Virus genome (UHGV): UHGV-0141098
DNA from: a virus
Strand: one strand, 5' to 3'
Length of the DNA: 19,773 nt
Below, piece after piece: positions 5,881 to 12,300 of this stretch (position 1 is its first letter; each line of letters starts with the position of its first letter). The translations under genes were made by a program, and so were the position numbers. The notes under the pieces are model-generated. The model was not told the origin of the DNA. It did no database searches and worked only from the letters and a program-made list of their open reading frames with translations.

Positions 5881-5884
5881 AAAT

Positions 5885-5920
5885 ACCTCATGTACTCGTT
5901 ATGTGTACACAATTATAAAC
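5885..5920 (-). promoter_or_regulatory. phd-doc promoter with palindromic autoregulatory operator sites
   Basis: Minus strand reads TTTATAATTGTGTACACATAACGAGTACATGAGGTATTTATG: a TATAAT -10, then the palindrome GTGTACAC and the related GAGTACAT, then the Shine-Dalgarno. Confidence 0.5.
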
Positions 5921-6056
5921 TTCACAGGCATAAAGCACCAGCACTTTGCGGCTTAACAAACCTCTAGGCAGATCATTCGTAGCCTAATGTCCGAACTGCT
6001 AAAGCATCCAAGTTGCTGTAGAATCACCGCCAATTACATAAGCCTGAAATAAGTGG

Positions 6057-7619
6057 ATGAAAATGACAAGTATTCAACAACGTGCAGAGCTTCATCGTCA
6101 AATCTGGCAAATTGCTAACGATGTCAGGGGTTCGGTCGATGGATGGGATTTTAAGCAATACGTTCTGGGCGCACTTTTCTACCGTTTTATCAGCGAAAAT
6201 TTTTCCAGCTATATTGAAGCCGGTGATGACAGTATCTGTTATGCGAAACTGGATGACAGCGTAATTACTGATGACATTAAAGACGATGCCATCAAAACTA
6301 AAGGCTACTTCATCTACCCCAGTCAGCTTTTCTGCAACGTAGCGGCGAAAGCAAATACTAATGACAGACTGAATGCAGATTTAAACAGCATCTTCGTTGC
6401 TATCGAAAGTTCTGCTTACGGTTATCCTTCAGAAGCTGACATCAAAGGTTTGTTTGCTGATTTCGATACCACCAGTAACCGCCTGGGTAACACCGTTAAA
6501 GATAAAAATGCCCGCCTGGCTGCGGTTCTGAAAGGGGTTGAAGGGTTAAAACTTGGTGACTTCAACGAACATCAGATTGACCTGTTCGGTGATGCCTATG
6601 AGTTCCTGATTTCTAACTATGCGGCAAATGCCGGTAAGTCAGGCGGCGAGTTCTTTACACCGCAGCACGTCTCCAAGCTGATTGCACAACTGGCTATGCA
6701 CGGGCAGACCAGCGTTAACAAAATCTACGACCCGGCAGCGGGTTCCGGCTCACTGTTGTTGCAGGCGAAAAAACAGTTTGATAACCACATCATCGAAGAA
6801 GGCTTTTTCGGTCAGGAAATCAACCATACGACCTATAACCTGGCGCGTATGAACATGTTTTTGCACAATATCAACTACGACAAGTTTGATATCAAGCTGG
6901 GTAATACACTGACTGAGCCGCACTTCAGAGATGAAAAACCGTTTGACGCCATCGTATCTAACCCACCGTATTCGGTGAAATGGATTGGCAGCGATGACCC
7001 GACGCTGATTAACGATGAGCGTTTTGCCCCGGCTGGCGTTCTGGCCCCCAAATCCAAAGCTGACTTTGCGTTTGTACTACATGCGCTGAACTATCTTTCG
7101 GCCAAAGGTCGTGCTGCGATTGTCTGCTTCCCGGGTATTTTTTACCGTGGCGGCGCAGAGCAGAAAATCCGTCAGTATCTGGTCGATAATAACTATGTCG
7201 AAACCGTAATTTCACTGGCACCGAACCTGTTCTTTGGCACCACCATTGCAGTAAACATTCTGGTGCTGTCTAAGCATAAAACGGATACCAAAGTTCAGTT
7301 TATTGACGCCAGCGAACTGTTCAAAAAAGAGACTAACAACAATATCCTGACCGACGCCCATATCGAACAGATTATGCAGGTATTTGCCAGCAAGGAAGAT
7401 GTTGCTCATCTGGCGAAATCTGTCGCGTTTGAAGCCGTTGTAGCGAATGACTATAACCTGTCGGTGAGCAGCTATGTGGAAGCGAAAGATACTCGCGAAA
7501 TTATCGATATCGCTGAGTTGAATGCAGAGCTGAAAACCACGGTCAGCAAAATCGACCAGTTACGCCAAGACATTGATGCGATCGTGGCTAGAATTGAAGG
7601 CAGAGAGGTACAGGCATGA
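6057..7619 (+). CDS. hsdM: Type I restriction-modification N6-adenine DNA methyltransferase subunit HsdM, 520 aa
   Basis: AdoMet-binding motif [10 protein letters not shown] and catalytic NPPY motif (SNPPYSVKW). N-terminus [17 protein letters not shown] matches EcoR124-family HsdM as recalled. Stop overlaps the hsdS start (ATGA). Confidence 0.95.
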
Positions 7620-8836
7620 GCGAGCTGAGCTATCTGGAAAAACTGTTGGATGGGGTTGAGGTTGAGTGGGTAACATTGGGTTCTATGGCAGATATCGGTA
7701 CTGGAAGCTCAAATCGTCAGGATGAAAGCGAAAATGGAATTTATCCATTCTATGTTCGCTCAAAGAATATCTTGAAGTCAGATACCTTTGAATTTGATGA
7801 GGTAGCAATAGTCATTCCTGGTGAAGGTGGAATTGGCGACATATTTCACTATGTTGAGGGGAAATATGCTCTACATCAAAGGGCGTATAGAATTCGTATC
7901 ACAACTAATGCCGTAGACACGAAGTTTTTGTATTACTTCATGTCATCTAGCTTTAAGCAGTACATCTTGACAAAAAGTGTGGGTGCTACCGCCATTTCGA
8001 TAAGAAAACCCATGCTGGAAGGATTTAAAGTTCCCATTCCTAGCCCGGACAACCCGGAAAAGTCCCTAGCCATCCAGTCTGAAATCGTCCGGATTCTGGA
8101 TACATTTACTGCACTTACCGCTGAGCTTACCGCTGAGCTTACCGCTGAGCTTAACATGCGTAAAAAACAGTACAACTACTATCGCGACCAGTTGTTGAGT
8201 TTTAAAGAGGGTGAGGTTGAGTGGAAGACTTTGGGGGAAATTGGGAATTTTACATATGGATATGCAGCCAAAGCCATGGACTCAGGAGATGCCCGTTTCG
8301 TGAGAATTACTGACATAAATAAAGACGGGAAGCTATCGAAAGAAAACCCAATGTACGTTGAATTAAATGAGGAAAATGAGAAATATACCTTAGACAAAAA
8401 TGATTTACTCATGGCAAGGACTGGTGCAACCTTTGGTAAAACAATGATTTTTGAAGAAGATTATCCAGCAGTATACGCTGGTTTTTTAATAAAGTTGAAC
8501 CTAAATGAAACGATTATTAATGCCAAATATTACTGGCACTTTGCACAAAGTGATTTTTTTTGGGAACAGGCTAATAAATTAGTATCTGGTGGTGGGCAAC
8601 CACAGTTTAATGCTAATGCACTGAAACAAGTCAGAGTACCTATTCCATACCCATCTCACCCTCAAAAATCTTTAGACGAACAGGGGCGTATTGTGGATAT
8701 TCTAGATAAGTTTGATGCAATCGCAGCTTCCATCACCGAAGGTCTTCCGCGTGAAATCGAGTTGCGCCAGAAACAATACGAATACTACCGTGATTTACTG
8801 TTCAGTTTCCCGAAACCTGAAACTGTCAGTAATTAA
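7616..8836 (+). CDS. hsdS: Type IC restriction-modification specificity subunit HsdS, 406 aa
   Basis: Conserved type IC regions at N-terminus ([18 protein letters not shown]), centre ([19 protein letters not shown]...[12 protein letters not shown]...[31 protein letters not shown]) and C-terminus ([34 protein letters not shown]), flanking two AT-rich variable target-recognition domains. Confidence 0.95.
8117..8152 (+). repeat. three perfect tandem copies of the 12-bp unit ACCGCTGAGCTT, encoding (TAEL)x3 in the HsdS central region
   Basis: Seen directly in the sequence. This is the repeat whose copy number (2 versus 3) sets spacer length in EcoR124I versus EcoR124II. Confidence 0.95.
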
Positions 8837-8957
8837 TTGACCATTGCTACCGATCGGGCCACCTTAACACCCGGTCAGTATATAGACTATTTTTTACGCG
8901 CCGGAAGTCACTCTTAACGCCCTTCCGGCTCTTGCCAGGCGGCACAAAGGATGCGCT

Positions 8958-11900: not shown

Positions 11901-12074
11901 TATATTCGCACGTCTTTAAAACGCGAATACGCCACCGAAAATGGCACAGAATTAAACGAAACATTACCAAAACTTAGTCCGTTGAATCCGCAATATAAAA
12001 CGAAAAAACAGGCAGTTTTCCAGAAAATCGTCTCGTTTATTGAGAAGTTTAAAGGCGTAGGCGGAAAAATATAG
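8958..12074 (+). CDS. hsdR: Type I restriction endonuclease/translocase subunit HsdR, 1038 aa (EcoR124I-like)
   Basis: PD-(D/E)xK nuclease residues D151, E165, K167 ([20 protein letters not shown]). SF2 helicase motifs [12 protein letters not shown] and TGTP. Length of 1038 aa and N-terminus [14 protein letters not shown] match EcoR124I HsdR as recalled. Confidence 0.95.
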
Positions 12075-12153
12075 CCCAATTCGTGTTTTTCTTGCGGGTT
12101 CTTAATTAAACCCGCAAGAGCTCGTGGGGTTCCAAATGGCTAATATACTCCCC

Positions 12154-12240
12154 TTACCCATGCGCGACGATGCCGCCAAAAGTGATAGAGAACAGCCAGA
12201 AATAGATCGCGGTCATAATGATTTTGAATGCCGTGTTCAT
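12154..12240 (-). CDS. small hydrophobic peptide, 28 aa (MNTAFKIIMTAIYFWLFSITFGGIVAHG)
   Basis: Not in the ORF track. ATG preceded by AGGAG 8 nt upstream. One predicted transmembrane helix. Lies downstream of an operator-associated promoter-like element (12325..12341) and is convergent with hsdR. Confidence 0.35.
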   Translation of the reverse strand: MNTAFKIIMTAIYFWLFSITFGGIVAHG

Positions 12241-12269
12241 ATCTTCAGCTCCTGTGATTGATTGGATAT

Positions 12270-12300
12270 ATGCCGCGCCCCTTGCGGCATGTTTTTATTT
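12270..12300 (+). terminator. Rho-independent terminator (probable hsdR terminator)
   Basis: Stem ATGCCGC/GCGGCAT (7 bp) with a 7-nt loop, followed by GTTTTTATTTT on the plus strand. About 200 bp downstream of the hsdR stop. Confidence 0.6.

Follow-up and report, generated by a model that had tools for sequence, protein, structure and literature searches.

The viral genome UHGV-0141098, whose whole stretch of 19,773 nucleotides is called the window below, carries on its plus strand the three genes of a Type I restriction-modification (R-M) system, hsdM, hsdS and hsdR. They lie between the phd-doc addiction module and the pap gene of a backbone that resembles phage P1; the positions and domain contents of these genes and of their neighbours are collected in Table 1. 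The hsd genes are co-directional and all full length. hsdM and hsdS overlap by 4 bp, and hsdR follows hsdS after a gap of 121 bp, as expected of Type IC systems. The PADLOC models agree with the Pfam calls for the three genes.

HsdM contains the motif NPPY at residues 302-305 and the S-adenosylmethionine (AdoMet) motif DPAAGSG at residue 225. HsdR possesses D151, E165 and K167, QxxxY at 179, the Walker A sequence GSGKT at 310 and DECH at 408. We compared the proteins with the EcoR124 subunits of known structure. HsdR aligns end to end (1-1038) with EcoR124I HsdR (PDB 2w00_A) with 2289 bits and about 99% identity, 10 mismatches being visible across the first ~970 residues, and HsdM aligns with EcoR124 HsdM (PDB 7bst_D) with 1144 bits and 7 mismatches over 519 residues (98.7% identity). 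The N-terminal, central and C-terminal conserved segments of HsdS are identical to those of EcoR124 HsdS (PDB 7bst_A), whereas both target recognition domains (TRDs) differ. The exact HsdR protein was found on 79 contigs. Similarity of HsdR and HsdM to EcoR124, the EcoR124_C domain, a two-domain HsdS bearing a TAEL repeat and the catalytic motifs are thus all present, and by its sequence the locus encodes a Type IC system of the EcoR124 family with no component missing. Such families are delimited by how similar their subunits are and by whether these complement one another. The initial annotation had described the hsd genes as an intact locus of this family and had named the motifs NPPY, D151/E165/K167 and DECH; the open reading frames (ORFs), the Pfam domains and the PDB identities agree with that description, and every named motif is there.

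The promoters of the locus are less distinct. The hsdM-hsdS promoter is presumed to lie in the 100 bp of non-P1 DNA that precede hsdM, a sequence also found upstream of hsdM in pYLPD4a and pUTME-7-2, and a consensus promoter scan of these 100 bp detected no promoter-like site. The same scan marked one site in the hsdS-hsdR spacer, at 8864-8893, which we presume to be a separate hsdR promoter by analogy with the known two-promoter layout of Type IC loci; consensus matches of this kind occur at chance frequency. Rfam and tRNA searches of the window returned nothing inside the hsd interval.

Replacement of the P1 pmgT-humD block

BLAST alignment of the window with the P1 reference genome (NC_005856) showed that positions 5957-12149 (6193 bp) stand in place of P1 84483-87969 (3487 bp). 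The left junction (5956/5957) corresponds to P1 87970 and the right junction (12149/12150) to P1 84482, and both end-points coincide with gene borders. On the left, the break coincides with the stop codon of humD and precedes the -35 box of Pphd by 16 bp; the phd-doc promoter is therefore untouched. On the right, it falls between a 28-residue hydrophobic ORF, which has a Shine-Dalgarno-like run, and the pmgT start codon. The nine P1 genes of the pmgT-humD block are missing from the window, and the guanine-cytosine (GC) content of the cassette is 43.9%, compared with 46.5-49.2% in the flanks. The locus is a replacement of the P1 pmgT-to-humD block of about 3.5 kb by an hsd cassette of about 6.2 kb, and no simple insertion. 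The initial annotation, in which positions 5881-12300 formed a locus inserted beside phd-doc, was right about the neighbourhood; the foreign DNA is narrower (5957-12149) and P1 genes were exchanged for it. Its gap of 176 bp between phd and hsdM (5881-6056) is exact, and the order that it gave for P1, with humD, lxr and hot before phd, agrees with the P1 record.

The P1 record itself already contains these borders. Two of its features concern the EcoDXXI hsd locus: P1 87969-88647 (doc, phd and Pphd) matches the sequence upstream of that locus at 98% identity, and P1 84263-84482 matches the downstream sequence at 96%. In a third feature, P1 84399-84482 is given 98% identity to the DNA that follows hsdR in R124/3. 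The end-points 87969 and 84482 of these features are the junctions of the window to within one base.

Outside the cassette the window aligns to P1 over 721-5956 (92.2% identity), 12150-13815 (97.2%) and 14584-18235 (98.4%). The genes pacB-pacA-lpa-pdcB-pdcA-doc-phd on one side and pap-pmgS-pmgR-pmgQ-ppp-pmgP-pmgO-pmgN-pmgM on the other are syntenic with P1 at 92-98% identity. By synteny and identity, as used to define Punavirus, the backbone is P1-like, in line with the P1-like backbone with phd-doc proposed initially. An IS1 element of 768 bp (13816-14583), flanked by the 8-bp target duplication CGGCATTA, splits pmgS into 12921-13829 and 14579-14959; plasmid NZ_CP060066 carries this insertion too. 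Within pmgM, at 18235, the homology to P1 breaks off, and only the C-terminal 81 residues of this gene product remain (17983-18228). The break is followed by fragments of an IS110-family transposase (18225-18893) and of an IS3-family rve domain (19112-19705), and the phage backbone is rearranged. The plasmid replicon, of the IncY or p0111 type in P1-like phage-plasmids, lies outside the window. At the other end of the window, Rfam detected on the minus strand a C4 antisense RNA (434-521, 75.9 bits) and isrK (547-624, 60.8 bits), which overlap an Ash-family/icd-like ORF (158-607, minus strand). These hits indicate that pacB and c1 are separated by a second immI-like c4-icd-ant module in a sub-lineage comprising RCS47, 673R5 and the E. 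coli G5 plasmid; in P1, c1 directly follows pacB.

Both modules next to the left junction are well preserved. The phd antitoxin gene lies directly upstream of the gene for the Fic-fold toxin, the Fic motif is present and Pphd is retained with a perfect -10 box. The initial annotation spoke of two adjacent addiction/defence modules, which is correct for Phd-Doc as addiction and for hsd as defence. We do not extend the word addiction to the R-M genes, because Type IC systems tolerate establishment and specificity change: they become established and change without killing the host, restriction alleviation being built into enzyme assembly through a weak R1 intermediate (PMC12707154).

Near the right junction, a longer ORF occupies the place of the 28-residue ORF just before pap in SJ46 ('membrane protein') and in phi456 (hypothetical protein). 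The operator Op88 and the P1 pmgT promoters are kept and now point into the 3' end of hsdR, where they could drive repressor-controlled antisense transcription. We considered that a C1-controlled PpmgT antisense transcript might couple restriction to the prophage state, and leave this idea as a speculation with no supporting evidence and no clear selective rationale.

Table 1. Positions in the window of the hsd cassette and of the adjoining P1-derived features
Feature	Position	Strand	Description
doc (toxin)	5279-5659	-	Pfam Fic/DOC; 98.4% identical to P1 Doc; Fic motif HIFNDANKR at H66
phd (antitoxin)	5659-5880	-	Pfam PhdYeFM_antitox; 100% identical to P1 Phd
P1-derived intergenic part with Pphd	5881-5956	-	-10 at 5912-5917 (TATAAT), -35 at 5935-5940; projected from the P1 annotation
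Left arm of cassette	5957-6056	+	100 bp of non-P1 DNA 5' of hsdM; presumed hsdM-hsdS promoter
hsdM	6057-7619	+	520 aa; Pfam N6_Mtase and HsdM_N, E-value 3e-121; predicted Type IC N6-adenine methyltransferase subunit
hsdS	7616-8836	+	406 aa; two Pfam Methylase_S domains; predicted specificity subunit
TAEL repeat	8114-8149	+	Three perfect copies of the 12-bp unit CTTACCGCTGAG, encoding (L)TAEL three times; Tandem Repeats Finder (TRF) 3.3 copies, 100% match
hsdS-hsdR spacer	8837-8957	+	Promoter-like site 8864-8893 (TTAACA, 18 nt, TATTTT) by consensus scan
hsdR	8958-12074	+	1038 aa; Pfam HSDR_N, SWI2_SNF2/ResIII, T1R_D3 and EcoR124_C; predicted translocase-nuclease subunit
Right arm of cassette	12075-12149	+	75 bp; inverted repeat 12091-12118 with 10-bp stem; non-P1 DNA ends at 12149
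P1-derived pap-pmgT intergenic DNA	12150-12340	-	BLAST against P1; holds 28-aa ORF, hairpin and C1 operator
28-aa hydrophobic ORF	12154-12240	-	MNTAFKIIMTAIYFWLFSITFGGIVAHG; ends 4 bp from the right junction
Terminator-like hairpin with T-run	12268-12292	+	In the pap-pmgT intergenic DNA
C1 operator OpmgT/Op88	12325-12341	-	One mismatch to consensus
pap (P1 phosphatase)	12341-12847	-	Pfam HAD_PNKP; 94.7% identical to P1 Pap; first conserved backbone gene right of the cassette

HsdS specificity and the TAEL repeat

The central repeat of HsdS consists of three TAEL units starting at residues 168, 172 and 176 (span 168-179). In Type IC systems, two such units go with a target spacer of 6 bp (N6, EcoR124I) and three with a spacer of 7 bp (N7, as in EcoR124II, EcoDXXI and EcoprrI) (PMC3874165). 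With three copies in the window, the spacer of its target is therefore expected to be one bp longer than that recognized through the two-copy sister alleles.

Among database proteins, the HsdS closest to that of the window is P0001, found on 16 contigs; it contains two TAEL units and is otherwise the same protein. The exact 406-residue HsdS of the window does not occur in a protein collection with 15 billion entries. A sister of the window is plasmid NZ_CP060066 of E. coli G5, which is 99.6-99.97% identical to the whole window. It contains three insertions without counterpart in the window, ISKpn26 in hsdS, IS903B in hsdR and ISSen4 near ant, and the window therefore shows this plasmid lineage in an earlier state that is still intact. 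Its hsdS has two units, and over window positions 8063-11409 (~3.3 kb) one 12-bp unit is the sole difference between the two sequences. pYLPD4a possesses the same recognition-domain pair with three units, in a background differing at four residues, and the hsdS of pUTME-7-2 has two units. The P1-linked genes as a group are diverse: in the 20 intact hsdS that could be extracted, crude clustering, which may over-split, distinguished at least 9 TRD1 and about 13 TRD2 classes in many combinations, and the repeat is present twice in 11 genes and three times in 9.

The specificity of these systems varies by TRD shuffling and by gain or loss of the 12-bp TAEL unit, as already described for Type IC. 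The hsdS of the window looks like the product of a recent change of spacer length of the EcoR124I-to-EcoR124II type. We lean slightly towards the view that a very recent natural specificity change has been caught here and that N6-to-N7 changes happen repeatedly in natural P1-borne Type IC systems; the recognition sequence produced by the change may still be uncatalogued. Together with the sister plasmid, the window provides a two-/three-copy pair that constitutes a natural second test case of the EcoR124I/EcoR124II spacer rule, with a recognition-domain pair other than that of R124.

Probable exchange of the cassette among P1-like elements

The interval between phd and pap holds different genes in different P1-like elements. 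The pmgT-humD block of P1 is variable region 8 of the P1-like phage-plasmids (PMC9603915); RCS47 carries humD-hot together with lambdoid-like early genes, and SJ46 an 8.5-kb set of genes of unknown function. Hybrids in which humD, with or without hot, lxr and upfMNO, stands beside hsd were observed in pUTME-7-2 (3084-5500 of its extracted locus, L005), in pYLPD4a (4407-5500 of L004) and in the IMG/VR loci L015, L029 and L032. The initial proposal of a cargo exchange point is supported by these different contents in P1, RCS47, SJ46, pUTME-7-2 and the hsd-bearing elements. Wherever an examined hsd locus has the right flank of P1, its right junction is the same one; the left side is variable. pYLPD4a departs from this pattern in that its similarity to the window reaches no further than the hsdR stop codon, beyond which lie non-P1 genes. 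Its humD is adjoined by the host genes metG and apbC. The loci of pYLPD4a and pUTME-7-2 have in common an additional 250 bp to the left of the point where the cassette of the window ends, which hold a 71-residue ORF of unknown function (5149-5364 in L005).

We analysed differentiation along the right flank by aligning 4.7 kb of 70 sequences, that is 69 of the 80 IMG/VR P1-like loci plus the window (21 with hsd, 49 without). The fixation index (Fst) between the two groups, given without a significance test and on a sample that may include near-duplicates, falls from 0.17 within 400 bp of the junction to 0.09 between 400 and 800 bp, and is about 0 farther out. From ~0.8 kb outwards, the backbones of elements with and without hsd thus cannot be told apart. 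Such a decay would be expected of homologous recombination in the flanks that carries the cassette from one backbone to another, and it supports this movement without proving it. The decay also counts against the hsd-bearing elements forming one clade and against hsd as the ancestral state of the whole lineage; the initial annotation had named the latter as the finding that would overturn its reading, and the coexistence of both states on the same backbones speaks against it.

The arrangement is frequent. At least 80% of window positions 5600-12400, both junctions included, is covered by 514 PLSDB plasmids. Using 500-bp probes centred on the junction and matched over at least 80% of their length, we detected the phd-hsdM junction in 655 of 5426 complete E. 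coli genomes (about 1 in 8) and, with the corresponding P1 probe, the phd-humD junction in 488; the hsd state is therefore the commoner one in sequenced E. coli. The same layout, phd followed by 176 bp, hsdM to hsdR and pap, is found in phi456, which was isolated as a plaque-forming phage with sequenced virions (PMC10967188). The nine replaced P1 genes are therefore not needed for the formation of infectious particles.

The title of a 1997 article by Tyndall et al. (Mol Microbiol 23:729) states an association of Type IC hsd loci with P1 sequences, and the article is reported to have proposed that Type IC systems ride on P1-like elements and are swapped via conserved flanks. It is cited in PMC12707154 (ref. 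364), PMC2853133, PMC3205389 and PMC519025. This setting is the classical one for Type IC hsd loci and a very common one, so that the arrangement is already known and, although real, ordinary. The window adds little new knowledge and represents a clean, intact example of a Type IC system on a P1-like phage-plasmid.

We conclude that the window very probably derives from a P1-like phage-plasmid in which pmgT-humD was replaced by a Type IC cassette beside an unchanged Pphd-phd-doc, and that this cassette would defend the lysogen and spread by recombination in its flanks. By analogy with EcoR124I, an M2S complex would methylate a bipartite target on both strands; HsdR would join it to form R2M2S, which would translocate DNA from unmodified targets and cut it. 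A lysogen would be protected in this way from unmodified incoming phage and plasmid DNA, and the host probably restricts such DNA at a bipartite site. Homologous recombination in phd-doc and pap-pmgS, the conserved flanks, would most likely carry the cassette from one P1-like element to another, and the phage-plasmid would take it between cells.

Several observations weigh against this conclusion. The host element looks degraded, with IS1 in pmgS and pmgM broken at transposase fragments, and is probably no longer a competent phage. In the sister plasmid NZ_CP060066 both hsdS and hsdR are hit by IS elements (ISKpn26 and IS903B), so that the system may be under weak selection in this lineage. 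The promoter scan is at chance level, with 11 sites found against 10.4 expected. The make-up of the Fst sample and the lack of a significance test count on the same side, and the original direction of the replacement, hsd in or pmgT-humD in, is not proven.

This direction is the subject of the first alternative, which we consider unlikely: hsd would be the older state in the P1-like elements of E. coli, and the pmgT-humD block of reference P1 the later replacement. The greater number of hsd junctions (655 against 488) fits this order, as does the near-junction nucleotide diversity (pi), which at 0.034 in hsd-bearing flanks compared with 0.028 in the others makes the hsd state old. However, the GC content of the cassette is below that of the backbone, and RCS47, SJ46 and most of the IMG/VR loci keep a pmgT-type right junction with mosaic phage genes. 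The hybrids with humD, hot and upfMNO beside hsd also fit a stepwise loss of P1 genes better than a gain.

It is somewhat less likely still that the locus is an inert passenger, its intact-looking genes silent or decaying in a defective, IS-ridden prophage remnant and conferring no defence. The IS1 in pmgS, the pmgM truncated by IS fragments and the ISKpn26 and IS903B insertions in the hsd genes of the sister plasmid would agree with decay. In contrast, the three ORFs of the window are full length, their motifs are intact, and they show 98.7-99% identity to subunits of the biochemically active EcoR124I; the occurrence of the same HsdR on 79 contigs also stands against decay. An in-frame change of repeat number is a known functional change and no form of decay (PMC3874165). 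Finally, the cassette is most improbably a self-mobile element with the phd-pap interval as its target, be it a transposon, a site-specific island or an integron-like cassette: its junctions do have the same positions in many unrelated plasmids and phages, but we rejected this origin as no direct or inverted repeat pair was found around the cassette ends, no recombinase-like gene appears in the ORF list of 5957-12149 (three large hsd ORFs and short overlapping frames, the short ORFs lying outside the domain-library scan), the left boundary differs in the hybrids, and flank differentiation decays within 0.8 kb, as for homologous exchange.

Comparison with known systems

In reference P1, the flanks of the interval and the gene order on either side of it are identical to those of the window. 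Pphd, phd, doc, pap and Op88 are kept in the window, whereas all nine genes from pmgT to humD belong to P1 only in this comparison. The layout phd-doc, hsdMSR, pap-pmgS is shared, at 96-98% nucleotide identity, by vB_EcoM-673R5, phi456, Salmonella phage SJ1 and hundreds of E. coli plasmids in PLSDB. These relatives differ from the window in hsdS: the recognition domains of 673R5 are unlike those of the window, and hsdS is disrupted by insertion sequences (IS) in phi456 and in the G5 plasmid, as is hsdR in the latter, while the genes of the window are intact with three TAEL units.

Of the classical Type IC systems, EcoDXXI resembles the window in its flanks, which according to the P1 record match the junctions of the window, and in its three TAEL repeats. 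Its original locus lies on a conjugative plasmid fragment, in contrast to the long P1-like backbone present here. EcoR124I and EcoR124II, encoded by plasmids R124 and R124/3, show the same gene order, the same HsdS conserved regions and the central TAEL repeat, and R124/3 has the same right junction as the window according to the P1 record (84399-84482). Both TRDs of EcoR124I differ from those of the window, whose recognition sequence should therefore be other than GAA N6/7 RTCG. EcoR124I (N6) and EcoR124II (N7) differ from each other by a 12-bp unit, as the window does from its two-copy allele.

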